This document shows positions 1 to 37,236 of a DNA stretch of 42,399 bases, piece after piece. Each line of letters opens with the position of its first letter. Position 1 is the stretch's first letter. Under the pieces are notes generated by a model. It was not told the origin of the DNA. It saw nothing but the letters and a program-made list of their open reading frames with translations, and searched no databases. Source of the stretch: Trypethelium eluteriae. Lineage: Eukaryota. The position numbers and the translations under genes were made by a program. The DNA lies in NCBI GenBank assembly GCA_051942245.1, contig JAVECL010000017.1, positions 62,001 to 104,399 on the forward strand, given 5' to 3'.

Positions 1-1
1 T

Positions 2-3000
2 GAATCTGTCGAGACGCTCTTACCTGGATACAGGTCACATCACCAGGCGAGCAAAGAATCTTCCAGTATCGAAGCCTTCGCCAAGGCAAACGGAATGTCT
101 CAGGGACCGTTGCCTCCTGTGACGAATGGTCGAGTCAATGGCCATATCAATGGTCATACCAACGGCCATGTCAATGGTCACGCCAATGGCCACGCCAATG
201 GTCACGCCAATGGTCACATCGATGGCAATGGCCGTGCTCAACTCAGCGGAAACAATGATTCTATGATCAATGGAAATGGTTATAGGTCAAGGCCAACCAA
301 GGACCGTTTCCTCCTCCCATTCTCGGCGCATGATGAGAAGACACTACAGGCCAATTACGATGCGTTAGCTAAATCCGTTACCAATTGGGACTTGATGGAT
401 GTTGCGTTCACCCTCAGTGCTAGGCGTAGTTTACTAACTTACCGGTCGTTCATTATAACGAGCGTCAACGAGGCCGAACAAGATCTCCCAGAAGCAAAAC
501 TAAGCATCGCGAAGAAACGTTCCGCTGCCACCCCGGTTCTTGGTTTTGTCTTCACTGGACAGGGCGCTCAGTGGCCTCAGATGGGGAAATCACTCATGAA
601 AGAATATCCGAGCTATCTAGCAACAATCCGGAGACTCGACAAATACCTTGACGATCTTGATGAAGCCCACGGCCGAGACTGGAGTATCGAAGGAGTCATG
701 AATCAAAGTCCGGAAGAAAGTCTGGTCCACAACGCGGAGCTTTCGCAGCCTCTAGTGACTGCATTGCAAATTGCGCTTGTTAATCTAATTTCTCAGTGGA
801 ATGTGACGCCAAGCGCCGTTGTCGGCCACTCATCTGGTGAAATCGCCGCCAGCTATGCTGCAGGCTTACTGACTGAAGAAGAGGCTATGATCGTAGCTTA
901 TCTTCGAGGAAAGACACTCGCGCACAACAATAAAAAGGGATTGATGATGGCTATTGGTGGCCACCTCTCCGAGATCCAACCTTTGGTGGATGAATTTGAC
1001 GGCCAAGTCACCATCGCGTGCCATAACTCCCCAGAAAGCTACACATTGAGTGGAGATGCCGACGCAATGGTTCGACTCAAGGAAGTCTTCGACGAGAAGA
1101 AGATCTTCTGTCGTACACTCGTCACAAACAATAACGCCTACCACTCGCATCACATGAAAGCTCTTGGTCCACAATACGAATCGGAGCTCGAGTCTTCCAT
1201 GCCTAAGAGCTCGGCTGTCAAATCTCTCAAGCAAAGTTCAAAGAGCCGTTCTGTCCAAGCTGTTTTCTTCTCATCTCTCTATGGTCACGCCGCACCCTGG
1301 TCATTGCTAGGTCCTAAGTACTGGCGCCAGAACCTTGAGTCTCCGGTACTATTTCATCAGGCCGTCGGGGAAATGGTCTCGCAGCTACCCGTCGATATTC
1401 TCATAGAGATTGGGCCTCATGGGGCACTCCAAGGACCTCTTCGACAGCTGTCCAAGACGATGGACAAAGATATCAAGTTTCCCGAGTATCTCACGGCTAT
1501 ATTCAGGGGCAATGACAACGTGAAAGATGTCCTTTCACTCGCGGGTAACCTTTTCAATAAAGGCTATGATGTTGACCTCGCACGTGTCAATGCCATTGAA
1601 GGCAGAGGAGGGAACCAGTACCAATTTGGTAAGGTCATCACCGACTTGCCTCAGTATCAGTGGCAGTATCCAAAGGAAATCCTCCTTTATGAGAATCGCT
1701 ACACTCGGGAATGGCGATTGCGCATGCATCCGCGTCATGATTATCTTGGGAGTCGCATTCCAGGTGCAAACAAGACCGAGCCAACATGGCGAAATATGCT
1801 CTCCATGAACAACGTCCCGTGGCTCACGGATCATCGCGTGAGTAGTCTTTCCATGTCTTCAAACGGAATCTGACATATTGTTATAGCTCGGAAAGGAGAT
1901 TGTGTTCCCCTCCACTGGCTACCTTTGCATGACCGTAGAGGCAGCTACTCAAGTTGTCGAGTTGGGAGGCTATAGTGCCACTGACGTCGAGTATTACGAT
2001 ATCAGGGATGTTAGCCTTTCCAAGGCTTTGATTGTGCCTGAAGACGATCGTGGTATCGAGACCCTGTTCACCTTGCGACCAGCCTCGCTAAATGCTGTGT
2101 CCCGCCACCAGTGGGTCTTTGAATTTGTTCTCACATCCGTCTCAACCGAAGAGGGGCAAGATATTTTTTCGGAGCATTGCCGTGGCCTGATAGAAATTAG
2201 CTTTGAACAACACGGTAAGTTGTCCATGCATCTTCTGCCATGATGATTCTGACGCTAGAAGAATTTCCCGAGAGTCAAGTTGTCAAAGACATCCAAGCTG
2301 CCTCCTCCGTCCAAAAACATATCAATGCTGCACAGTGGTACGAAACTTTTGCGAGGGTCGGACTTTGTTATGGTCCAATGTTCCAAGGTCTCTCCAACAT
2401 CACCGCCGTGGGGGAAACCAACATGACCGAAGCACGAGTGAACCTAGAGCCTACTGCAAAGATCATCAATGGAGAATCGAGGTCCCTCTTGCATCCTGCT
2501 GCGCTTGATGCTAGCTTGCAGCTCTCCATTCTCGCAGCGCACAAAAGCGTTGCCACAAAATTTGAACGAGCTTTTATGCCTACAGCATTCGAAAGCGTCA
2601 AGATTTGGCCAAAAAAGGTGAGACAAAGCCATACATCTGCCAAGTCATATGCTGGTGCTACGTTGAAAGGTGTTCGAGGGCTATCATCGGACGTTGTGCT
2701 CCTAAGTACGGAAGGACAGCGACTGCTGGAGGCTACGAACATTTTCCTTACCGCTTCCGATCAATCCGCACCAAAGCTCATTGACGATCCAAGTCCGTAC
2801 ACCCGTATTGTCTGGAAACCAGGCTTTGATCACCTCACTACAAACATCATGGAGCAGATGTATCCGCCAATTGCTCTGAGTGACGATGCCGTCATTCCCT
2901 CCTTGAACCATCTTGCATTGCACCAACTGATTCATTTCAAAGCCACAAATCCGGCTGTTTTCGAAAAGGGTTCGGAGCAGCCTCATTTACAGAGGCTCCT

Positions 3001-6000
3001 TGATTGGACAACGAAGAAACTCGACCTTGCCAAAGCAGACTCCAACTCTCCTGCTCGAAAGATTATGGAATACAGCAAGGATTTCAGGGCCAAGGAAATA
3101 GAACGTCTGTCAGGAAATTTGATGCCACAGTCTTCTGAAGCTCGACTCATGTGTCGTCTCTATAGTAACCTCCCAGCGATTTACAGTGGAGACAAGACAG
3201 GTATCCAGGTCGCACTTCAAGACAATTTGCTTCTTGACAACTACGAGACTGGGCAAGTATACCGAGAGGGAAATCGGCGCCTGGCTTCCGCAGTAGCACT
3301 TTATGCTCACCAAAACCCCAGACTCAAGATTTTGGAGGTTGGCGCTGGTACCGGAAGTGCGACTAACGAGATTCTACCTGCTCTGAAGGGCGACAGTGTC
3401 TGGAGACAGTACTTGGAGTATCGCTTCACAGACACGACTACTTCCTTTTTGGCCGGAGCAGAAGAAAGATTTTCCACGTTTAGCGGGATGACATTTGGGG
3501 CTTTTGATATGGAAAAGAGTCCAGCGTCTCAAGGCTATCAGCAAGATTGGGACGTCGTTGTTGCCTCAAATGTCATTCATGCTACATCGGACATCAAGAG
3601 CACTCTGCTCCATATTCGAAGTATTCTCAAGCCCGGCGGCAAGATGATTTTGTTGGAATTGACTCAATCTCAGCTCAGTGCTGGCTTAGTCTTGGGAACC
3701 TTCAGCGACTTCTGGAAAGCCGATCACGACCCTGAATATCCACGATACGATGGCCCGTTCTTAAGCAAGTCACTTTGGAAAACGGTATTGCCAAATGCTG
3801 GGTTCCAAGGTCTCGATTTCTATCTTGATGACTATGCCGGTGACAATGTCTCCGCAACGGTCGTTTGTGCCACTGCCGCGGAACCTGAGACAAGAATTCC
3901 GGATACCATAGCAGTACCGGGACAAGAGGGCGTCACAATGGTCTATCGAGACGCTCCAGCTCCCTTCATGAAACCAATGGCTAACCATATCGCAAAATCT
4001 GTTGCAGTACCAGTCGACACGATACCCCTTGCGAACATCGACACTGCTCGCTATAATAGATTTGTCTTCCTTCTGGAGACCAGCAGTCCTTTCTTCATCG
4101 ATGTCGCACCTCAGGAGTGGGCAGCTCTCCAGTTAGCTCTGAGCCGATCAGCTTCTTCCCTCTGGCTAACCAAAGGAGATCTTATGACCGGCAAGGAGCC
4201 ATTGCATGCAATGATTTCAGGTCTGGCCAAAGGCATGAAAACCGAAAATAGCTCCCTTCGCTTCAGCATCCTCGACCTCGACAAAGTCCCAGATGGCTCA
4301 GAGATCGAGCTATTCAGCCTCATTGGGCAGCTTGAGAGCAGAGTCTCAGATGTCACTAGAGTCAACGATGATTCCGAGTTCAGATATAAAGACGGAATTC
4401 TCTACATCAGCCGTCTCATAGCTGATGACGGTCTGAATGAAAGGTCAAAAGCCATTACCAGCCAGGATTCCCACAGTGAACAAGTGCCCCTCAAGGATTT
4501 GAAGACTACGCCCGTCCAACTTGCGATCGAGAAGCCTGGCGTCCTGAGTACAATTTACTTCAAGCAAGATCCCAAGTTTGCCAGACCGTTAGCTGCAGAC
4601 GAAGTAGACATCGAAGTCAAGTTTGCGGGCGTCAACAACAAGGATATCTCGGTCCTTACGGGTCGACATCATTCCGACTCCTTCAGCGATGAATGCTCCG
4701 GAATCATCGTCCAAACCGGCAGTGACGTTAAAGACCTGAAAGTCGGCGACCGTGTGTACTGCCAATCCTTCTCCAAATTTGGTAACTTTGTCAGAGAAAA
4801 GGGGGCATTCTGCCAGCGTCTCGAGAATAACGACACCCTAGAGGGAGCGAGCACATTGCCGATCGCCTTCAGCACCGCGCTCTATGGCTTGGTCGACCTA
4901 GGCCGTTTAACTAAAGGTGAATCGGTGCTGATACAGTCTGCGACCGGTGCTGTCGGTCTTGCGGCCTGTCAGATCGCCCATATGCTTGGGGCTGAGGTGT
5001 TTGCCACAGTCGGTACAGAGGAGAAGAAGAACGAGCTGCTGGGAATGGGATATGGAATCAGGGAAGACCATATTTTTTGGTCGAGGGACAGATTCACGGC
5101 AAAGAAACTGCTGCAGGAAACCGGCGGTAAGGGCATCGACGTTATTCTGTGCAGTGCTCGTGGCGAGCTCATGCACGAGTATTGGAGATGCATTGCCACT
5201 TGCGGTAGATTCGTCGAGATTGGACGGACGGAGGTCTTGGATAACGGGAAATTGAGCCTTGACGTCTTCGGACGCAATGCTACCTTCGCCTCGTTCGATC
5301 TCGAGGTTATGAGCAAGAATAAGCCACAAGTGACCGCTCGGTAAGGTCTTGTCCACATGGTCATGATGCGAAGCTTACGCTACATAGGTTGATGAAAAGA
5401 ATTCAGCAACTGAGATCTGTGGGCTTCATCAAGCCCTTGCCTGTTCAGAAATTCCATGTTTCTGAGATCGACAGAGCTTTCATGACATTTTCTAAAGGCA
5501 CTCACATCGGAAAGCTGGCCATTGACTACGATGATTCGTCCGATCAGGGTTTGAACGTTGGTTGCGTCCCGTCAATTCATGCTTCACCACCACTGACATG
5601 ATCACAGTTGCGGAAAGATCCATTCACCACCAAATTCGACCCAAATGCATCTTATTTGCTAGTTGGCTGTCTGGGAGGCTTGGGTCGAAGCTTCAGCGCA
5701 TGGGCAGTCTCACGGGGAGCCCGTAACCTGATCTACCTTTCCCGCAGTGGAGCTGCCAAAGACGAAGCTAAGATCTTCCTTGACGCCTTGAAAGAACAGG
5801 GTGTTAATGCTTCAATTGTCAAGGGAGACGTGACATCTCTCTCCAATATACAAGCCGCAGTGAAGAGCAGCAAGCTGCCCATCAAAGGCGTCGTCCAAGG
5901 CGCTCTCACACTCCACGATGGTCTCTTCGAATCCATGTCACTTGAGCGATTCAACGCCACCGTTCATCCACGTGTGATTGGCACATTGAATCTCCATGAA

Positions 6001-6765
6001 GCTTTGAAAGATTCTCCTCTCGAATTCTTCGAGATATGGTCTTCGTGGACTGTCGTCTTCGGTACTGCTACCCAGAGCAACTACCTAGCCTCAAACTCAT
6101 TCCTCGACGCGTTCGCACGACATCGTCGCGCTTCTGGACTGCCATGCACGAGTTTGGCTTTAAGTCAGGTTCTGGGTATCGGTATTGTCTCGTATATGCC
6201 AGAGTATCAGCAGGCCATGATCCGAAACGGCTTCTATGGCAACGATGAGAACGAATTCCTGCAGTACTGCGAAGCGGGTATCATGCGCCCAAATCCGGAA
6301 GAGGATGACGACGCGACATTCAAGTACGATCCGCAAACCCTGGGTCACCTACTCGTCGGCATCGAGCCCGCAGGTCTCCAGAACGTAGATCGAAAGTATC
6401 CGCTTTCGGAAATGCTCTGGTACCGCGATCCTCGATTCAAGAACCTCATCCAAGCAACGTCCCTCCTTTCATCCAGTGATCAGGATAAACGTACTGGCAG
6501 CGGAGAGGAGGGCACTGTCTTGGACAGGATCAGGATGAAAATCTCCAGGTTGCTATACGTGCCGCTTGACGAGGTGGACGTTGAGACGGCAATTAATGAT
6601 TACGGTATTGACAGTATGATTGCAGCAGAGTTGCGGAATTGGTTCTTTACGAGTTTTGGGAAGAATGTCAGTCTGCTGAAGTTGCTGAGTGCAACAATGA
6701 CGATTCAGAAGTTGGCAGAGGAAGCAGCAACGGGAGAAGGAGGAGGAGGAGAAGAAGAGCGGTGA
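2..6765 (+). CDS. Highly reducing iterative type I polyketide synthase, 5'-partial ([KS]-AT-DH-CMeT-ER-KR-ACP)
   Basis: Frame is open from base 2. AT: VFTGQGAQW, GHSSG, AYHSHHM. DH: spliced WLTDHR|LGKEIVFP and HPAALDASLQ. C-MeT: ILEVGAGTGSAT. ER: LIQSATGAVG, GRFVEIG. KR: GCLGGLG, QSNYLASN. ACP: GIDSM. Four GT-AG introns keep the frame: 1838-1886, 2215-2258, 5341-5387, 5557-5607. Stop TGA ends at 6765. Confidence 0.97.
125..220 (+). repeat. Coding 12-bp minisatellite (8 imperfect units, AAYGGYCAYRYC) encoding NGHx repeats in the KS-AT linker
   Basis: aatggtcgagtc aatggccatatc aatggtcatacc aacggccatgtc aatggtcacgcc aatggccacgcc aatggtcacgcc aatggtcacatc. Confidence 0.9.
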
Positions 6766-7762
6766 TGTGGAGCTTGGACTCCGGAATGAGTTGGAGGCTT
6801 TGAAGGAGCAGCACGCGGGTCTGGAGCGGCAGCAGGCGGTGGGGGCGAGTATATTAGATAAAATCTATGGTCCAGTTAATTGGCCAAGAGAACTACGTTT
6901 TTAGGAAAATGACTCCTGTTTAGGTACGATTCTGTACCCACAGGATACTCCAAGGGTACCGCATAATTAAAGGTCTTATGGTCTTTCTTATTCAGCTGTC
7001 AAGAATTTTGCTTTTGCGCCTGTTGCTTTTCCTTTCGTTGTTGGAATTCGGGTTGCATTTTACCAGCTAGAACAATTCTGCCTAAGCAGGAAAATGATTC
7101 AACGTGCCAGAGCGGCTACTGTGCAATAAAACCATAGGTCCTTGAGCAGTCATTGCCTCATCCCCCAATTGCCCTTCACCAGGCTGAGGATCATTGTAGA
7201 AAGTACCTGGAACACAGCACGTTGTTGAGTCCTGTGTGGTCTCCTGCTTCTCGGACTTGGGGGGTACCTCGTCAGGTAATGCGACTGTCCTAGAGTAGCC
7301 AAGCAGGCGCCTTTCTTGACGTTTGAAGGGTAGAATTAAAAATGTCTCAGCAGATGTGCTTATCGTCAGATGCAGTCACTCCATTACCAGCTCTTCGAAT
7401 TCTTTATAGGGGGGAGGGGGAGTGATGCTTTGTACCAAGCTAGTGGGCCTGCTGTTACTGTTGGATGCAGGTGTGCATCTTGGAGAGTAGTTTTCGACCA
7501 TTGTTGCGAAGAAACCCATTGCGTTCTCCGAATGTCTGGCTGCTCGAGCTTTGGCCTCATTCCACGCTTCAGGCTCAAGATCGAAATTGGAGTAATACCC
7601 TTTCTTAAACCTATGATCGGTGTGAGTATTGAAAATTCAATGCCTGACTGATGGTTCACTTACAGCTTATATTGCACTCTACTCCACATACTCTTACCAG
7701 AGAGTATCAATATGTGCGGCATCTCAGTCCTTGCCGGAAAGTAGACGTTGGAGATCCAGAAG

Positions 7763-8106
7763 TCAGGTATTAGTACACAATAAATTTAACGTATGTAGCC
7801 CTCTTACCAATGCTGCGTAACGGAAACCATCCTCTCGGGATACTTCCTGCCTTCTGACGTCACTTTCAAGATAGACAGCCATGATATGTCGACGTCGTCT
7901 TTCCGTTCGAGCTGCTTTGTTCCATTCCTTGCGCAATCTATTCCATTCCCGGTAATCGTGAGGGTTTCTAATCATATAGCGCCAGATAACATGTAGATAA
8001 AGGTAAGAATAAAAGGCAGAACGAACAAAATAATAACGCTACCGGCCACGATCGCTGCAACGATAAAAGCACTGGATACGGAGTCCTGGTTTGGTATCGG
8101 GGCCAT
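7763..8106 (-). pseudogene. Small single-pass membrane protein, apparently frameshifted
   Basis: ATG at 8106 gives MAPIPNQDSVSSAFIVAAIVAGSVIILFVLPFILTFIY (hydrophobic helix), which stops shortly after. A different frame continues with a basic juxtamembrane segment VIWRYMIRNPHDYREWNRLRKEWNKAARTERRRR. Frameshift is inferred near 7990. Confidence 0.45.
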
Positions 8107-8549
8107 TTCGCGCGTAGTGTGATTTGAGTGTTAGTGACAAAGTGGGTCATCTCGTTGCATACCAATACTAGGGAGGTCCAGGTACTAATATTATGTAGGT
8201 CTCTGTGCGTTTTTACAAGCTACATTTGCCTAATGCCTGTGCAGCTATGTGTTATTTTTGGTAGGAGCTAGCTAGATGTGGAAGAGTCCACGGAGAGTAG
8301 TCCTCATGGCCCGTAGACTCCGACATTCTGTAAATTATTTTCTGTGTGCGTGTCTATTTTCTGCAGAATAAGGTTCTCAACAGTGTAGATATGCTCAAAT
8401 GCAGATCACGCACGGTGCTGCGGCCATATCTCGGGCGACGTTGAAAATGACTCCACCTCGGAGGAGGATGACTCCTTCAACGTAATCGTTATGTAGATGA
8501 CCATATGTATATATGCGCTATTTAGTAGTCAGAAGAATTGTGATATAAG

Positions 8550-8565
8550 AAAAAGAAAAAAAAAA
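8550..8565 (-). terminator. Oligo-T run, Pol III terminator-like, downstream of the tRNA 3' fragment
   Basis: Minus strand reads T10-C-T5, starting about 15 nt after the tRNA acceptor end at 8580. Confidence 0.5.
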
Positions 8566-8579
8566 GGGTTAGAAAGACC

Positions 8580-8615
8580 AGATCTCGCAGGGATTCGAAC
8601 CCCGAATTTCTTGAT
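8580..8615 (-). tRNA. tRNA 3' fragment (anticodon-stem 3' strand, variable loop, T-arm, acceptor 3' strand), Arg-like
   Basis: Minus strand: A TCAAG AAATT CGGGG TTCGAAT CCCTG CGAGATC T. T-stem pairs (one G-U) and the B-box is canonical. ATCAAGAxATT resembles fungal tRNA-Arg as I recall it. No contiguous 5' half found. Confidence 0.65.
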
Positions 8616-10506
8616 AGCAAGAGATAGCTTTTGTATTACTCCGTATATTCTCTCGCATTGAAGTTGGAGTTAGATAAAACGAAGCCATATTTTCTTACTT
8701 CATGGGTATGTAGTTGAACTCAAATAAGAATCATTTTCCTCGATGCTTACTTTTGCGAATCAAGCTACCCGTTATAGTCTTACAAAACTCACGTGCATGT
8801 GAGGCATGTTTGGATATAGCTGCTGTCCCGCAGCGGCGCAGCCTCGGCCAGGCCTTATATAGTCTCTTCCTACTTCAGTCGGTGTTTGGTCCTCTCGTTC
8901 CCAGGTCTGACCTTCCTAGGACACAAGGTTCTCCGTGGGTGTGAATGTGATGAACGTCTACTTCGCTTATTTATTATATGTTGTAAGATTGTAAGTAGAA
9001 ATATCTAATAATTGAGGCTGCGCATGGGGAAAGAAAGTCCGCAGATTCCATGGATTACCTGGGTCGGTCTTCCGACTGCACTACTAAGAGTAGGCTAAAT
9101 CTACATATCTTTATCCCATTAGATGTATATCTGCATTCGGGACAGAAAACCCTCTGCCTCATTACCAAAACAAGAAAAGCCGGAGCAATCAATATTACTA
9201 CACTAAAGCATAGCTGGTCAAGCCAGATTTTTACTATTACTATTTACTATTACTATCATGAGATTTGCGTTACTACGTTACTGTTACTTAGTAAAATAGT
9301 AATTACTAACATGCGGCAGGTCATGGCTTCGCATATTGACCATGAAAACGATAGTTTCTTTGTCGTCCGTCAAAAAACTCCTTTTTTTTTTCTTTTCCCT
9401 TATATCTGAGCCGATGCTTCCAGTGGAGCGGAAGGGCCTGAAAGGATATGGATGCACTCCTTACAGCGTCGGATTGTTGAGTTTATTAATGATTGTCCAT
9501 GGTTGGACCAAGCTACTTAAGTGTTTTCCTGCCGCAGTTGGGTAAATATTGGAACAAGGCCCCTATTACCCCGCAGCTAATGTCGACCTGAGAATGGACG
9601 TAAAGCCGCGGATAGTGAGGTCGAAAAGGGTAGATGTTCACCGGAACATGGGAGTTATGGGAGTTTCATGCGGATGTTCCTCATGTCTGGAAATTTGTGT
9701 CATAATATACTCGTGAAATTCATAAAATTTGCACATAGGCTGTATATGAGTTACTATAGCAACCCTACACATATGTGTAAATTGTAGAGCAGAAGGTCCA
9801 TCTGCAGCCAATTGATCTAGATGCATCACATAAACAAGCACATAGACCTATGTTTTATGATAAAACTTATGGTAACTTAGAACAATTATACAGAAAGTGT
9901 AAAATTATGTCTCGGCGGCTTCCGTCATTCAAATCCTCGAATCAAGTGGGTTGAACCTGGAAACCAGGAAGGCTCAATATTGACAATATACTCGATTAAG
10001 TCTGCAGCTTTGTGTTTTGTCCAACATCGGCCGAAAGCGCGTATATTACATGGTGAAGTACGTAAACATGTACTCCGTGCGGAATAGAGCGCAGCACTCA
10101 TACTTATTGTATATCCACCTCAGCCTTGCTAAAGTGGATCACCAGCGTCGCAGTAAATCGTTTGAGGCTCAATGAGCATCGAAGGATCAGCCACTGAGCT
10201 CATTTTACATCTAAGCTCACCCCAAGTTGGAGTACAAAGCTACTGTAGTTGGCTCCCGTCTAGAGCGCCATCCCTGTTTATTTAAAGTCCAAAGCAAACT
10301 ACTTCATCACTGTCCATATAGGTTCGTTCAAGACCTTCAATTGAAACGGGAGCTCCGTACCCCTAAGAGAAACACCTACTGACGATGAACGGACGCTGCA
10401 AGAATATCACGCGAGAAGAGGAATGATATTGTGTCCGTGAAGTTATTATACCAGTGATGTAAATTTACTAAGTATTCGATGTTTGCGAACTATAATCCAA
10501 AACTTT

Positions 10507-10601
10507 CCTTGGCGTTATTAACACCACCTATTCGATGTTAGATTGTTCCTCAAAGGATCCTGCAGTGACACTTACGCTCTAACCAACTGAGCTAATCGAC
10601 C
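10507..10601 (-). tRNA. tRNA-Ile(AAT) 5' two-thirds, interrupted by a 48-nt spliceosomal-type intron (10528-10575); 3' end not found
   Basis: Exon 1 (10601-10576): GGTCGAT TA GCTC AGTTGGTTA GAGC (acceptor 5' strand, paired D-stem, A-box). Insert: GTAAGTGTCACTGCAGGATCCTTTGAGGAACAATCTAACATCGAATAG. Exon 2 (10527-10507): G TGGTG TTAATAA CGCCA AGG (5-bp anticodon stem, AAT anticodon). The joined sequence closely matches the eukaryotic tRNA-Ile(AAT) pattern TAGCTCAGTTGGTTAGAGCGTGGTGYTAATAACGCCAAGG. Confidence 0.8.
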
Positions 10602-11015
10602 GTAGATAGCAAATGTTCATTAAATATATTGAAAATAAATTTTACCCACTTTGGACCTCTTAGCAATCGGCTCAATACTTTTTTGGCGAGCAACTGTAGG
10701 CTCATTACAGTCTCGAGTTCACCCCACTTCGTCTCCCAAACAAGTTTACTTTCAATTCATATACAACAGTACGCTCCAAAACTCGCTTACAATCTGTACC
10801 GTAGTACGTACCATAGACTGTATAGACAAGGCAGGCACGCGGTTGACAGAAAAACCCGCACACGAAAACTGGGGGGTGCTTCATAAGGTAGACAAAAAAG
10901 ATCACATATTTATATTAGGCTTGTCTGCTGTTGCACAGTCACCAACTTCTAGACTCAAGAGATTGTCAAATAATAATTTGTACCCTGTAGAGGACAGTAG
11001 AGGTGATCTACAGGT

Positions 11016-12239
11016 ATGGCTGCTTTTCTGGCGAGGCACCCCCCAGTTCCGCTGTGCGAGTTTTTTTGTCAACCGCGTGGCAGGCTACAGGGACTTGGTC
11101 ATCAACTGGCACCATGGATTCGTATCGATTATGGATGGAACGAAAGTGAGCTTCAGTATCCGAGACCTAGGTCGGGTCCATTCAAGTACATACGATCATC
11201 GGAGGATAAAGGTTTTCTCGAAGTCGACAACATCAAACGATACAGCAGTGATTGCCTATTGTTCATGCTCACTAAGAAAGGCAAACCTAGAGTCCATCGG
11301 CCACCACCGCACAAAGACGAGACAGGCAGGTTCTACAGCGCACAGTGTGTGCATTACGGGATCAAGTCAAGATCTAGCAAGGAACTTGCAAAGAAAGCGT
11401 TATCTGCGTATGCGAAAGCCAACGATGGCAAATTCGTAGTGCCACCCGAAGTTGCAAAGGTCACTGCGGAGCTTGAGAGCGAATATAAGAGCAAGAAAGC
11501 CGAATACGATGCGAAGATGCACGCTATTAAGACTCGAAAGAAGTCAGCGGAGGAAGTGTCACGAAAGAAACGGAAAAGAGAAGAAGGTCGGCTTCTAAAT
11601 ACTATAGCCAAGAGATCAAAGAAAGATACAGCGACGGTATGTACTTATCATTGAAACTTGCCCGCTATATTTCGACATATCTGACTCTTGGCAGGTGATC
11701 CCAAAAAACCTTAGAGGCGGTGGAGCGTATACCGTTGCTGCTCTAGCAATCAGTGGAGGCTGGGACATTTCCCAGTCCCTAAGACTTCGCCTCTATCAAT
11801 CCCAGAGCAGCTACCATGTGTGGGGTGATCTCGACTTTGGTGTCTTTAGAGGTACACCTTTCGTTCTGAGCGACTCCCGCAAAGCCAAAATGGCACAATC
11901 AAGTGCCATTTGAGAGGACGCGACACAGGCACAGGGGAGTCGAGCTTTGGACTAGATAATGTGATAGAATTCCAGTTCCTTGACGAGAAGACTTTTCGAG
12001 GCTCCATGCATTGGGATACTGTTGGACGATTCGACATCGCTGGCGAACTCGACTGGGAGCGCACGCGTAATCGGGTCTTCTCGATGAACATTCGCAGATG
12101 AAAGGATGACTATCGTCAACTCGGCGAAGCCAACTACGACGCTGAGGCGAGACGCAGCTGGGGAGTTCCTTACATTTCGCTTGATCTTGGATCGCCAGCG
12201 GTCAACTTTGCTCGGCTATCTAGATGTATGAGGCTGTAG
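11016..12239 (+). pseudogene. Conserved-looking fungal hypothetical protein, disrupted
   Basis: Exon 1 has FYSAQCVHYG...AKKAL...VPPEV and a K/R-rich coil. Intron 11637-11694 (gtatgt...ctgac...gcag). Exon 2 has HVWGDLDFG, then needs a frameshift near 11855-11862 to reach LRGRDTGTGE. In-frame TGA at 12099-12101 (probably TGG) precedes KDDYRQL...RRSWG. Start codon uncertain. Confidence 0.65.
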
Positions 12240-12480: not shown

Positions 12481-14635
12481 TCATCCAACTTCTCTGAGCA
12501 ACATCGTCGCGCCCTCCATTGCTCTCTTCAGCTCGTCTTGTCCGTCGATTTCGTAAACCATGCCTTGCTTCTGAGGAACGACCTCTGTGTACAGCAGTTC
12601 CTTCCGATCCAGTCGAACCTGTTCTACCAGCAACTCATGCGCAAGATCAAAATGGTCATCATCCCCAAGAATTAAGAAGCCATGACAATTTTCCAGAATA
12701 TCTTCAGCTGACAACCCGTCACGAATAGGCCACACAAGACCAATTTGTTCAATCAATGCCTTGCGCGGGACTGGCGACTTAGCGGAATAAGCTCCAATCA
12801 AGGCAGCCGTGCCGATCTCGCGGGCATGAAAATTAAACGCATCAGGCGCGATCCTTCCAAGGACCCTCCGAAATATGCATCCTAGTGGATCTTGCAGCTC
12901 GTCCTTTATGCTTTTTTGGCTATGATAAGTACTTATCAGAACTTCCAACTGTAAGAGATGGCACCAAAAAGCTTCATCAGGAACAGGCATCAGCCTCTTT
13001 ACTCTTTCTCCATAAAGCTCCATTTCTTGAATGAGTTGATCGTCAACGATCTGAAATGCTAATTCGTGTAGCGAAGGATCTATGAAGGGCGATTTGATTG
13101 CTGCGAGCTCCAGGCCGTGCCGAAGATTTATCGTAGACACATCCTCGAAATCAAGGGCATTGCCCGCAGGATCGCTGCTCGATATGAGGACCTTCACTGG
13201 AAAGTATGACTTACTTATAATTATACGAAGGGCACCCAAGAGCTCGTCTCGACAAACAGGTCCACAATCGTCCACTTTGTCAATGATGATTTTAACTGGT
13301 CTCCTTTCGGTTAAATTTAAAACGAGCCCAATGCACTTTTTGAGATCCAAATGCGGTGTCGCCTTCGTTTCACACATGCGGAGAATTTCAGATGGATCCC
13401 GTCTCTCTGAATCAAGGAAACAGAGCTGCTCGATGAGTGCTTGCGCTATCATGTCTGATCTTATCCTTTCAGGCTGGCAATAGAAGAAGGCTACTGAAGC
13501 AGCTTCGGGTGATTTCTGTGCTTTCTGTATCAAAGCTTCCGCCACTAGTGCCATTGCTTTAGATGTGTTGGATCCATGATTGCTCTGTAGCCAAATGATT
13601 GAAGAGGCGGAGCGGGTCCCGTCTTGCTTGTGTGTCAGCCAATTTGCAGGGATTGACGGTACGTCCTCCAGCAGTTTTGCGTGATGCTGACGATACTGGC
13701 TTGTAGGGAGCCGTGGAATGGAGCACAAAGGCTCATGCTCTGTCTTTTGCTCACGAAGCTCTTCGACTCGCGTGGTGATACCAGCCATAAGTCTTTCGAG
13801 AGAATCGCACGTTGACTGGAGACGAATCCGTTCCTTAGCATGATAGGCCTCCAGCTGTATTTGACGTACACGGATTTCTCTCAACTGTTCTTGTGTTTGT
13901 GAGACAATTTCCGCATCTGCCAGCTTGGCAAGCTGCATAACAGATGACTCCTCAACTTTGACCTTCTTGAGCAGTTCTCCAACAGCCCACTGCGGGGAGG
14001 TTACTGCGCTTTTTGCAATCCTTCTGACTGCACTTTTCTCGTAAAATCGGCCCGCGTTGGAGAGATACACGAGAATGGCTGCATATAAGCGAACAAGGGC
14101 GCGTAGGAGTAGCTCTTTGACTTTGACAGGCTGCTTGCAATACATAGCCTCGAGCATAGCATAATGTGCTATCAGACGAGATACTTGCTCGAGTCCTTCG
14201 GTCATAGCCCCAAAAATCTCTGCTTCATTGACCGTGACCTATCAAGGTTTAGCGCAAGGAATGCGTGATGTTCGCATGGGTGCATAGTCACACCTGAAGT
14301 ATAAATCGTATTATACCCCAAGGCAGCGAGGCATGAACTGGATCGTAATTGGCAACTACATCGCCAATCTCTTTGAATCTGTGAATCCATTTGGCAATCT
14401 TGTCCACGACATCCCTGATGAGGATCTGCTCGCCGCCACTCTTCCGGTACTTCCAACCTTGCCTCTGGCACAGGTCTCTCTTCTGCTCTACAACTAATAG
14501 TAGATCCTGAAGGATGGCATTTTCAGTTGAGAGAGACGATCTGATGTGTGTTTGATCCCGCTCGGGAAGCGTGTGGAGTGCCTGTTCCCACAGGGAAGCT
14601 GATGCGCTCGGCGAAGTGATGAGTAAGGACGACAT
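12481..14635 (-). CDS. Fungal NLR-like protein: N-terminal helical domain plus degenerate NACHT-type STAND domain, about 700 aa
   Basis: Exon 1: SLWEQAL...FKEIGDVVANYDPVHASLPWGIIRFILQ (typical NACHT N-terminal region). Intron 14239-14293 joins in frame to VTVNEAEIFGAMTEGLE. NACHT landmarks: IIWL, VAFFYC, KIIIDKVDDC, VKVLISS, LAHELLVE. Confidence 0.8.
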
Positions 14636-15982
14636 ACATCCGACAATACGCGCAAGGCTCTGAGCCGAAATGACTGAAACCAGAAAGTGAGACGAGATTA
14701 TTGGAGGGGCAGACGCCTAGTCTGAAATACGAATCCCATCGTCACGATGAAGCGGGGCGCAGCAAGGCTGAGACTTTGTTTTTCTAAACGAAGTTGGTAT
14801 GCAACATCTTCGCGATCTGTGACCAATGACGCCGGGGACACGCAGAGCAGATATTCGCGCTATGTTATGCGTTGGCCGTGCACTGATGATAGATTAATTA
14901 TGCATGCATAAGGGTAAAAATCGAGAGGTACGGTACAGCAGGCGCATCACGCCAAAGCACTTTGTTCGGGAAATCTAGCCTATCTTCAGAGTGTCGTTAA
15001 GCCAAAGAGGGCAATAAGCCCAGGATTATCTCTCTGATAGGACAAAATTAGGTACTGCCCATGAAACCAAAAGAGGGTGGTAAGAATATTCGCTGTTACG
15101 CCCGTGTGGTTGCTGGAGCAGCAGCCACCACCCCGCCCGCATGCATAACAGTCTGCTGCCTTTGTCCGCACGGCGCAGATATCTTTCTGACCTCCATTCA
15201 ATCACCATCCAAGCTTCGTTTAGATTGATGCATTTGTTTGGCAGTGATATAAGAGCTGCCCCTCTAAGATTTCACAGGGTCCTTCACTATAGGGTAAACT
15301 GATACGACTAGGCTCTACCCAAGCGTATAGTCATTCTTTTCCTACTCTTTACCCACTTTCGACTCTAATGCCTACCTTAATAAACCGATCGAACTCCAAT
15401 GTCTATGACAGTAAAGATCCCAAGAAAATCAGTGTTTACCTCCTAATCCCCGGCGAAAAGTTGTTACGGAGAGGTCGTGGGTGTTGATATCTACAAACTC
15501 ATCGATGACAAGAAGCCCAATGGCATCCCAACCCAAAAAGGAGACAAAGCTTACGGAGCACATATCGCAGTGTCAAGGACTCACTCTCGGGGACTTGAAG
15601 CTTACCATAATCTACTGCCATTAAGGGAATTCCAGTGCTACAACTACGCTGCACGGCGGCGTGTGTTGGTCAGAAGAGCGAGGGAGCGAGCGACAACGCA
15701 GCATGGCCACCGACTTGATTATCTATCTCGATGTGATGATTTCAAACTCTCGGTCAGATAAGAAACTGGTTACCTAAATCAATACATGATTTTCCTTCAG
15801 ACATTTGTTTACTCAAAATCTCGAATCTGGAATGTTCCATGGGAACTCGAAGGTACTCCGCAAGAGCACAGATCAAGCAAAATAAGTCGGATGCAACGCC
15901 TTCCGGAAACGCCGTTGATGATCCAAAGAACAATCTGGTCGGTACCGAGCATATCTACCCAAGCATGGTGCTCCGTGCCGGC

Positions 15983-33864: not shown

Positions 33865-36014
33865 TTACAATTTCGCTTTCACCCGCGTCTCTGTTGCCTT
33901 GTGCAGATCCTGTCCTTTGATCTTAAAATATTCCCCTATCTTTTCTCTAGCTACCTCAATAACACTTGCATCTTCTACAGTTGCGGGCACTTGGACTTTC
34001 TTCTGGACCTCGTCGTGCACTGCATTCTCAAGCATCTCCCGTAGAACGCGGCGCAGCGTTTTACCACTTCTCGTTTTTGGAATCATGCCCTTGCCTTGGA
34101 TCATTCCCCCGAGAGATGCGATAGCTCCTATTTGTTCGCGTACGAACTTCTGGATTGCTCCAGTGAGCTCGTCTGAGGGAATAGGCGAATCTGGATGCGG
34201 CTCTGTAGAGAGTGTCACGAACGCGAACGGGAGATGGCCCTTCAAGGCATCCGGTATGCCGACAACGCAAGCTTCGGCGACGGAAGGGTGAGATGATATA
34301 GCCTGCTCGATGGATCCTGCGAGACCAGTCAGCAAAGAAATGTATATTGCATCAAGGGACCCCGATTCTTACCTGTGCTAAACCTATGAGCAGCGACGTT
34401 GATTATGTCGTCACTTCTGCTCATGATATGTACGTATCCATCTTCATCCACCATGCCAGCGTCTCCCGTATCCATCCATTTCCCATCGAACCTCTTCAGA
34501 TAGCCTTTATAGAATCTTTCCTCGTCCTCCCATAAAGTGGTCAGGGCGGTCGGCGCCAAGGGAAGCGCCAACACAATGTTTCCCATTCCACCCTTCTCCA
34601 CCTCCTTACCATCATCATCGACTATCCGCACGTCGAACCCTGGCATAGGCTTCCCTGCGCTTCCCGGCTTGATTGGTAATGGATCATGTGCTTCTTTGCT
34701 ATTGAAATTCGTTCCTACCGCAGCTTTCAATGCAATTCCGGATATGGGGGAGCCGCTTTCGCTACTCCACCAATTGTCCACCACTAGGGCACCGGGCGCG
34801 CAGTGTTTCTTGAGTAGGTCCGCATACATGCTTACGATACTAGGTTCGCTTCTTTCGCCAGCGAGAAACAACGCTCGAAAGTTTTTTAGGCCACCTCTCT
34901 TTCCAGCCTTCTCGAAGAACCCGTTTTGCGGGTCATCCCGTCGGATTGCGCGTAATGCCGTGGGCGCGGTGGATAGCACGTTAACCTTGTGTTCTTCCAG
35001 TATCCTCCAGAATATTCCAGCGTCAGGTGTGCCTACTGGCTTGCCTTCGAAGAGCACAGTAGTGCAGCCCGAGAGCAACGGCGCGTAAATGATGTATGAA
35101 TGGCCGACGACCCAGCCAATGTCGGATGTGCAGAACATGGTATCGCCTGGAGAAAGGCCGAACAAGTATCGCATGGAGAGATGCAATCCTACCACATGAC
35201 CACCTGCTGGTCGCAACACACCTTTAGGCGTACCTGTTGTACCGCTTGTATAGATGATGTACAGCCCGTCATCGCTTTTGACTGGTACACAGTCTGCCTT
35301 CAACCCCCTGTTTCTCGCGCTCTTTACTAGCCGCTGCCAATTCCTCTCGCCATTCTCTTTTCGTATCGGATCCCACCTTGGTTCCTCCCTCTGCCACACA
35401 ATCACCTTGCTCGGCTTGAAGCTACTCTTCTCCAGCGCCCCCTCTACAAGCGGCTTATATGACATCGGTCCCTTCGCGCCTTCAATCCCACACGACGCCG
35501 TCATAACAGCACGAGGCTTCGACGACTCAATCCTCTGAGCCAATGAAGGTGCGCTGAATCCTCCAAACACGACCGCATGGATTGCGCCCAGTCGCGCAAT
35601 CGCGAGCAGCGCCGTGATCGCAGCCGGTATCATCGGCATGTAGACCAGCACGACATCCCCCTTCTTCACACCCTCCTCCCTCAACACCCCTGCCAGAACC
35701 TCGACTTCCGCGAGCAGCTGGTTGTAGGTCCATATCTCCTTCTTCCCCGTCACCGGGCTTTCCCACACGATGGCGCTCTGATCGCCTCGTCCCGCTTCGA
35801 CCCAGCGATCGACGCAGTTGTACGTAGTGCTGATCTCTCCGCCAGGGAACCACGTCCATGTAGGATGCGAGGTTCCTGATGGGAGCTTGCGTGTGGAGGT
35901 GTGAAGGGCGCGAGCGGGGGGCTTGTGCCAGTGGAGGTGCTTGGCATGGGCGAGCCAGAAAGATTCGGGGGAGTTGAGGGAGTGCGACTGTACTTCGTCT
36001 TGGGTGTGAGGCAT
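33865..36014 (-). CDS. Propionyl-CoA synthetase / short-chain acyl-CoA synthetase (ACSS3/PrpE-like)
   Basis: YIIYTSGTTGTPKG, SDIGWVVGHSY, DNWWSSESGSP, TGDAG, RSDDIINVAAHRFST|GSIEQ, PKTRSGK. Intron 34317-34372. C-terminal AKL. Confidence 0.93.
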
Positions 36015-37236
36015 GTTTATTTCGGGGGGAGCAGACGCTAAACGATGAAAGATGATGAGAGAGAGCAATTGATTGTCTACTGGTCAATTCTCAAGATTTT
36101 CGAAGAGAGAGCGACACCATTGACTTCGTAGAAAGGATCGACATGAAATAGCCATGCCGAACCGACTTCAATTGTGACACCACTTCATGCACCACTATAG
36201 CTCCGAAATAAATGCGTTCGGCTCTGTCCCGGGTGACCGGATATAGCATGGGATAGGTTACCGAGCTTCAGGCCAAGTCTAGATAGGTACCGACGGTATG
36301 TAGATACCTTACAGAGTTAATAATGCGGCTTGGTGCAAATCCCCGCATTTTGCATTTCGTTGGCCGGGGAAGCGCTTTGACCATCTTGTGGCTTGTGTTG
36401 CGACAGCCGATTTTGCTCTCGAGATGCCAAGGACAGCCAGGAGATGGTCTCTCAGAGGAATAAAGGCACAGCGGAAAGTCTGGTCTTCTTAGACGATGCG
36501 GTAATGCAAGCGCGGCTCTAGTATTCAAATTCGGACCCGTTTTCTTGGCTCCGATCGCATTGGGAGAAGCCTATATTTTTTATATTGTGGTTATTGAATT
36601 TTTAAGATGCTGAAAATGACCCAAAGATCTATTTGCCTTGTCCTTGAAATACTCGGCAACAAACGCGATACCGCTGGACTAGTTCAAATCAAATTAAAAC
36701 TAGATCATCGCCTCTAGAGCATGCAAAGCGTACCTTGCTATTGAGTCTGCACGATAGAAAGAGGCGTCAAGGCCTTGACTAAGCATATCGAATCAAGTGT
36801 CGCTCTTCTGGTATCGAACCATAGATCCGTACCAACTAAAGGCATGCTCAGCAATCTCCCCACAGATCTAGCGCCAGTCCGATGTTGAACATCAGGAGAC
36901 CAAAGTGTTTTGGTAGACGTAAAATATCAAGTACGCATGCAATGATTCCTATAGAAAGGCACAGGCGCGAAACTAACTGCAGCTGTGGAACAGGGACACC
37001 AACCGGCCTCTGTGCACCAAGGATGATGAACGCAGCCGGAAACCTCACCTTCGCAGACTCGAGACTCCTCTGCGAAGATCTAGGAAGCACCAGCCTGGTA
37101 CAAAGACCCAAAGGAGCGGAAGAGAAGGATGAGAAAGAATGATTAGAATAGCTACGCAAGTACCGAGTACAGCAATGCCGCTACTTCTTAACATGAGCCG
37201 GTGAACCCCCAACGAAAACCTTGGCCGCCCTCGACA

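Follow-up and report, generated by a model that had tools for sequence, protein, structure and literature searches.

A candidate relic of a tRNA-Ile(AAU) gene with two short spliceosomal-type introns in Trypethelium eluteriae

A locus on the minus strand of a 42,399-nucleotide stretch of DNA from Trypethelium eluteriae (contig JAVECL010000017.1, positions 62,001 to 104,399; this whole stretch is called the window, and all positions below are its own) is best explained, with moderate confidence, as what is left of a three-exon nuclear tRNA-Ile(AAU) gene whose exons were separated by two short introns of the spliceosomal type. The DNA itself shows how exons and inserts are laid out, how rare the intron signals are, and that the pieces lie contiguously in a related genome; removal of the inserts by the spliceosome in an ancestor is what we infer.

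Results

Anatomy of the tRNA-Ile locus

The window is fungal. A gene for a highly reducing polyketide synthase (PKS) with AT, DH, methyltransferase, ER, KR, and ACP domains occupies positions 1-6765 on the plus strand, an NLR-like gene with NPHP3_N and DUF7708 domains lies at 12481-14716 on the minus strand, and an acetyl-CoA-synthetase-like gene is found at 34329-36083. The locus under study is located at 10507-10601 on the minus strand, where direct reading gives a first exon from 10601 to 10576 and a second exon from 10527 to 10508, with 48 nt between them.

Exon 1 (10576-10601, minus strand; GGTCGATTAGCTCAGTTGGTTAGAGC) corresponds to tRNA positions 1-25. It consists of the 7-nt acceptor 5' strand GGTCGAT, T8 and A9, and a 4-bp D stem (GCTC/GAGC) in which all four pairs form around a standard D loop. 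The D arm holds an intact A-box-like sequence, TAGCTCAGTTGG, and a strict motif scan returned exon 1 as the sole perfect D-arm match in the window. Exon 2 (10508-10527, minus strand) corresponds to positions 26-45, with G45 at 10508. The sequence from 10527 to 10507, GTGGTGTTAATAACGCCAAGG, comprises G26, the anticodon arm, and the start of the variable loop. Its anticodon stem (TGGTG/CGCCA) pairs in five out of five positions, one of them G-U, and the 7-nt loop TTAATAA carries the anticodon AAT.

Insert 1 (10528-10575, minus strand) occupies the 48 nt between tRNA positions 25 and 26 in our own numbering, and its removal places these two positions next to each other. An earlier note on this DNA had described a D arm and an anticodon arm split by a 48-nt GT-AG insert, whose excision restores normal tRNA spacing; our reading of the minus strand agrees with this description to the base and rejoins 25 and 26 as claimed. 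The D arm and the anticodon arm are thus present as in a tRNA, and so is the acceptor stem if the candidate third exon described below is accepted. The sequence supports that the piece at 10508-10601 derives from a tRNA-Ile(AAT) gene.

Intron signals of insert 1

Insert 1 starts with GTAAGT, carries CTAAC at insert positions 35-39 with the branch-point A 10 nt from the 3' end, and ends with TAG. The GT/AG ends with their extended consensus, the branch-point distance, and the length are all those of a U2-type intron. We searched for such signals with a strict intron pattern (GTAAGT, 15-45 nt, CTAAC, 3-15 nt, YAG), using block-wise shuffles as a control. On both strands of the 42.4 kb, this pattern matched only once, and the match was insert 1 itself; shuffled sequences gave a mean of 0.18 matches per window. 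A looser intron pattern returned 14 segments of 40-59 nt in the window, several of them at ORF junctions, and both the 48-nt insert 1 and a putative 49-nt insert 2 (see below) fall inside this range.

The earlier note had also compared the length of the insert with the introns of the PKS gene (44-51 nt). Removal of GT..AG segments of 49, 44, 47, and 51 nt from the PKS gene leaves a reading frame that is open from base 2 to 6765. The comparison is consistent with this set, which, as one of 480 combinations that keep the frame, agrees with the range of 44-51 nt without proving it. Overall, the sequence supports that insert 1 has every signal and the length of the mRNA introns of this genome.

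Other types of insertion left no comparable trace. When all 4-mers within a few nucleotides of both cuts were considered, no central 4-bp helix of a bulge-helix-bulge (BHB) motif was possible for either insert, and the positions of the inserts, 25/26 and 45/46, likewise do not fit a tRNA-type, endonuclease-cut intron. Direct reading revealed no target-site duplication and no inverted or transposon ends at insert 1. A blastn-short search of the inserts against the window found no further copies beyond an 11-mer that the two inserts share. The locus does not have the properties of a multicopy element such as a SINE, a MITE, or an introner-like element. The claim of a spliceosomal-type intron in a tRNA gene, put forward in the earlier note, gains from the mRNA-intron signals and length and from the lack of a BHB helix and of transposon ends, but it is weakened by the state of this copy, which is split and dead. 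We also scanned metagenomes for relatives that carry an insert: neither a pattern made of the end of exon 1, 30-60 nt, and exon 2 nor a pattern of exon 2 followed by GTRNGT matched any locus (0 loci each).

A candidate 3' exon on the opposite strand

No T arm or 3' acceptor strand was found directly downstream of exon 2 on the minus strand. The 3' third, which the earlier note had reported as missing, is indeed absent there, but a candidate is present on the plus strand at 9320-9342. This putative exon 3 consists of GTC (tRNA positions 46-48) at 9320-9322, a T-arm remnant at 9323-9334, the heptamer ATTGACC at 9335-9341, and A73 at 9342. The heptamer pairs in all seven positions with GGTCGAT of exon 1, including one G-U pair. 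The T-arm remnant is 12 nt long compared to the canonical 17 nt; it contains the T-loop-like TTCG, and only three base pairs (ATG/CAT) are left for its stem. Direct reading of the plus strand further shows a run of 10 T at 9382-9391, 39 nt after A73, which is possibly a former Pol III terminator.

The two parts of the gene are joined in a contig of a related genome. This genome, termed X1, is represented by a public set of DNA contigs from a relative that is ~90-95% alike; the contigs cover part of the region and contain 0.26 of the words. The putative 5' part of insert 2 lies at 10471-10507 on the minus strand; it starts with GAAAGT, and hence with GA instead of GT, and ends where X1 leaves this strand. 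Its putative 3' end is located at the X1 junction, at 9304-9319 on the plus strand, with TACTAAC at 9304-9310, CAG at 9317-9319, and six bases between the two. Joined in silico as in X1, insert 2 comprises 49 nt at position 45/46 (GAAAGT...CAG), and its branch-point A is located 10 nt from the end, like that of insert 1. In the X1 arrangement, the site at 45/46 is an AG/GT proto-splice site, and removal of insert 2 rebuilds the variable-loop sequence AGGTC.

How readily such a 3' exon could arise by chance depends on the pattern that is counted. If G-U pairs are allowed, many heptamers can pair with the acceptor strand (163 seen, ~166 expected), and a loose module with a branch point and YAG upstream of a pairing heptamer was not enriched (2 seen, 3.7 expected). 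A strict 3' module, composed of a branch motif, YAG, GTC, 7-22 nt, a fully pairing acceptor strand, and A, was unique in the window; at least one match was obtained in 21 of 1000 shuffles (0.022 per shuffle), for a pattern that was written after the site had been seen. The X1 junction, which falls within 4 nt of TACTAAC, is independent of this pattern. Since pairing heptamers are common and the loose module is not enriched, the case for exon 3 rests on the strict pattern and the X1 junction, and on these grounds we consider it likely that 9320-9342 is the missing 3' exon of the tRNA-Ile gene.

The 11-mer shared by inserts 1 and 2 is AACATCGAATA. The score of the alignment was reached by only 2 of 2000 shuffles, which hints that the two inserts may be related, one being derived from the other. 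Insert 2 also resembles exon 3, but not significantly: 357 of 2000 shuffles reached the score of this match.

Comparison with the related genome X1

Relative to the window, the X1 contig runs from 10667 to 10471, continues from 9308 to 10446, and, after 81 unaligned letters, proceeds from 9225 to 9000. It joins 10471 directly to 9308, positions that lie on opposite strands in the window. Window and X1 therefore differ by the orientation of a ~1.1-kb segment, 9308-10446, which parts exons 1 and 2 from exon 3. In the window, this segment is bracketed by a perfect 11-bp inverted repeat, TACTTAGTAAA, which was identified by a repeat search and has its left arm at 9285-9295 and its right arm at 10464-10474. 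We read the X1 arrangement as the ancestral one, because an inversion in X1 that created such a layout would be a remarkable accident; X1 would then keep the colinear gene and the window would carry the inversion. Alternatively, the window may contain an assembly error that mimics such an inversion.

Both borders of the inversion, 9226-9307 and 10447-10470, could not be aligned to X1. The former is a TTACTA-rich low-complexity tract, in place of which X1 has 81 other letters. These unaligned stretches may record how the inversion happened. A further difference is located just upstream of exon 1, where the 50 nt at 10668-10717 are absent from X1 and replaced by the four letters TGAA.

Along 10471-10667, X1 differs from the window by 11 other letters and 5 gap letters in 197 nt (~94% identity), and its contig runs over this stretch with no joint that skips insert 1. 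The inverted flank shows 94 other letters and 59 gap letters in 1139 nt. Conservation of the locus thus does not exceed that of its flank, and selection on it is not apparent. Exactly one X1 contig covers the bins at 10404-10637, with a summed depth of 481-495 compared to the contig's own depth of 495.1. Since the summed depth matches that of a single contig, the locus is not a multicopy repeat (SINE or introner) at a likeness of at least 80%.

State of the gene and performance of tRNA finders

ARAGORN did not call any tRNA gene in the whole window. The earlier note had suggested deleting 10528-10575 in silico and scoring the product again, but ARAGORN still did not call a tRNA-Ile after removal of insert 1. 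The joined and spliced form, which folds with a 7-bp acceptor stem, likewise yielded nothing at default or lowered thresholds. With Rfam, no tRNA was detected in the window at the gathering score, nor around either piece at E values up to 10, and in-silico splicing did not change this outcome. Two types of calls were rejected. With the intron option and thresholds lowered to ps50, ARAGORN returned, on unspliced sequence and on sequence lacking insert 1, only a spurious antisense tRNA-Leu(taa) at ps70 and ps50. In mitochondrial mode, the program calls Ile(aat) on the joined and spliced form; we give this call no weight, since it was also obtained with random 24-mers of the window in place of exon 3 (1766 of 2000) and from most arbitrary deletions of the window's own downstream sequence.

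A motif scan revealed no B-box match near either piece, and a 17-nt T arm with a B box is lacking at the locus. X1 has GG inserted behind 9324. Because this extra GG does not restore a T stem either, the T-arm defect probably predates the split between the window and X1. Moreover, the exons are not colinear in the window, with exons 1 and 2 on the minus strand and exon 3 on the plus strand; they lie on one strand only in the X1 contig. Judged from its sequence, the gene is dead in the window, because the inversion has split it, 5 nt are missing from the T arm with its B box, and insert 2 starts with GA instead of GT. The caution in the earlier note that this copy may be dead was right, and it applies more strongly than it was worded there.

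Repeats and a second tRNA fragment near the locus

A MITE-like element is located at 10836-11079, ~235 nt upstream of exon 1. Its terminal inverted repeats (10836-10879 and 11036-11079) measure 44 nt and are 86% alike. The X1 bins at 10755-11105 sum to a depth of 5755-9061, compared to ~430-495 elsewhere, and one variant occurs in 13 contigs, which identifies the element as multicopy. The long stop-to-stop frames that overlap the element are unlikely to be genuine.

A second orphan tRNA 3' fragment was found at 8604-8581 on the minus strand. It consists of a perfect T arm (CGGGG TTCGAAT CCCTG) followed by CGAGATC, with a run of 10 T at 8565-8556. We rejected this fragment as the missing end of the tRNA-Ile gene, since its acceptor strand, compared by hand, forms only 4 of 7 pairs with the 5' strand of the Ile gene. 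A 5' part for the fragment was not found: removing one or two GT..AG segments upstream of it gave 3211 variants and a single, implausible ARAGORN call. The surroundings of the T runs at 9376-9406 (plus strand) and ~8571-8542 (minus strand) have a 31-nt stretch in common, with 29 matches and 2 gaps, a score that none of 500 shuffles reached. The 3' flanks of exon 3 and of the second tRNA fragment may stem from a duplicated flank.

Discussion

According to the explanation that we favor, a living ancestor of this tRNA-Ile(AAU) gene would have been transcribed with both inserts, and the spliceosome would have removed them: a 48-nt intron from position 25/26 and an intron of 49 nt, in the X1 arrangement, from position 45/46. 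The U6 snRNA of fission yeast likewise needs the spliceosome for its intron. Decay would have begun with a partial loss of the T arm, in which 5 nt disappeared together with the B box. Later, an inversion of ~1.1 kb with a breakpoint inside the second insert would have carried the 3' exon 1.2 kb away and onto the other strand.

Three other explanations have to be weighed against this one. The locus could be a fragment representing the 5' two-thirds of a tRNA-Ile gene that took up an unrelated 48-nt insertion with splice-like signals arising by chance, in which case the resemblance of 9320-9342 to a 3' exon would be a coincidence. The fact that no tRNA finder calls the locus fits this idea, as do the misfit T arm, the GA at the start of insert 2, and the lack of insert-bearing relatives in our metagenome scans; acceptor-pairing heptamers are common, and the strict 3' module was formulated with the site already in view. 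We nevertheless regard such a coincidence as unlikely: the strict intron pattern has a single match in the window, located precisely at an exon boundary, against 0.18 matches in a shuffled window, insert 1 came without a target-site duplication or inverted ends, and the X1 junction lies within 4 nt of a perfect TACTAAC, behind which come CAG, GTC, and an acceptor strand that pairs at all positions. Slightly less probable still, in our judgment, is a relic that forms part of a Pol II transcript, for instance of a long non-coding RNA or a UTR; the inserts would then be ordinary introns that this transcript acquired or retained, irrelevant to tRNA maturation. Spliceosomal splicing is normally coupled to Pol II transcripts, and the locus is situated in a 4-kb stretch without long ORFs between the PKS and the NLR-like gene, where unannotated transcripts are possible. 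But removing both inserts rebuilds the junctions at 25/26 and 45/46, whereas the introns of a host transcript need not respect tRNA boundaries unless they were inserted precisely. Moreover, no coding frame passes through the minus-strand exons, where a 54-aa stop-to-stop frame ends inside exon 1, and upstream on the minus strand, 1.9 kb separate the locus from the end of the nearest gene at 12481.

The remaining alternative is that the gene is alive in this lineage and that an arrangement like that of X1 yields a tRNA with a short T arm, or a tRNA-like regulatory RNA, that needs splicing. Exons 1 and 2 are free of disruptive changes, the joined and spliced form has its 7-bp acceptor stem, and the locus has been kept in X1 at ~94% identity. 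Yet the flanks are conserved about equally, without a sign of selection, the B box is gone, the extra GG of X1 gives no T stem, and the gene is physically split in the window. We consider a living gene improbable, and the least probable of these alternatives. The relic of a three-exon tRNA-Ile(AAU) gene hence remains our preferred reading.

Tentatively, and with less than even confidence, this reading can be extended to the lineage as a whole, which may have, or may recently have had, tRNA-Ile genes that need the spliceosome for two introns at 25/26 and 45/46, the locus described here being a decayed copy. The shared 11-mer would then suggest that one intron spread from the other.

Canonical nuclear tRNA introns are located at position 37/38 and are cut by the SEN endonuclease, and BHB introns at non-canonical positions of tRNA genes occur in archaea, red algae, and nucleomorphs. 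As with both of these types, removal of the inserts described here restores a cloverleaf sequence. The inserts differ from them by their positions, 25/26 and 45/46, by the lack of a BHB central helix, and by their spliceosomal boundaries together with CTAAC or TACTAAC. Like the tRNA pseudogenes and fragments found at rearrangement breakpoints, the locus is truncated, is missed by tRNA finders, and has lost its B box, and its intergenic surroundings contain repeats, among them a MITE-like element, as well as a second tRNA 3' fragment. Unlike a plain tRNA pseudogene, it retains intron-like inserts, which points to an origin from an intron-bearing gene, either by copying at the DNA level or as an orthologous relic, and not to a retroposed tRNA. 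In Dothideomycetes, introner-like elements are spliceosomal introns that exist in many nearly identical copies. Two inserts in one gene with a common 11-mer and similar ends recall such elements, but no more copies are present in the window, one X1 contig covers the locus, and the inserts are much shorter than described introners.

Spliceosomal introns outside of mRNA genes are documented, according to excerpts of a published account (PMC5855946), for the U6 snRNA of Schizosaccharomyces pombe and other fungi (Tani and Ohshima 1989, 1991, in PMC5855946), for U2, U1, and U5 of Rhodotorula hasegawae (Takahashi et al. 1993, 1996, in PMC5855946), and for rRNA genes (Bhattacharya et al. 2000, in PMC5855946); in the same excerpts, reverse splicing is the favored origin of the introns in snRNAs and rRNAs (PMC5855946). 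As in the U6-type cases, a short GT..branch point..AG insert interrupts a conserved gene for a structured RNA that is normally made by Pol III. In contrast to the snRNA and rRNA cases, the host here is a tRNA gene, it probably had two inserts, and it is represented by a dead copy. The earlier note knew of no described case in a tRNA, and our full-text literature search, which covered few subscription journals, also found no published spliceosomal intron in a tRNA gene; a candidate paper, PMC3879985, proved irrelevant.

The locus hints that mRNA-type introns can live in tRNA genes, although this copy cannot prove splicing. It makes a weak demonstration of a spliceosome-dependent tRNA but a good lead. 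Inserts that persist in a pseudogene would show that they belonged to the DNA of the gene, and the value of the locus is that of a lead for a genome-wide, exon-wise search for tRNA genes in this lineage.

In the textbook view, two separate systems exist: the SEN endonuclease acts on the introns of tRNAs, and the spliceosome removes GT-AG introns from Pol II transcripts. To our knowledge, the exceptions to this split are U6, a few other snRNAs, and rRNAs. If our reading is true, these exceptions would extend to tRNA genes, the most abundant class of Pol III genes, and the question would arise by what path a ~170-nt Pol III transcript encounters the spliceosome. In the reading extended to the lineage, spliceosomal introns would be spreading within and into tRNA genes, by reverse splicing or by an introner-like route. 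A tRNA gene with such introns would also mean that the tRNA genes of some fungi are undercounted by standard tRNA finders.
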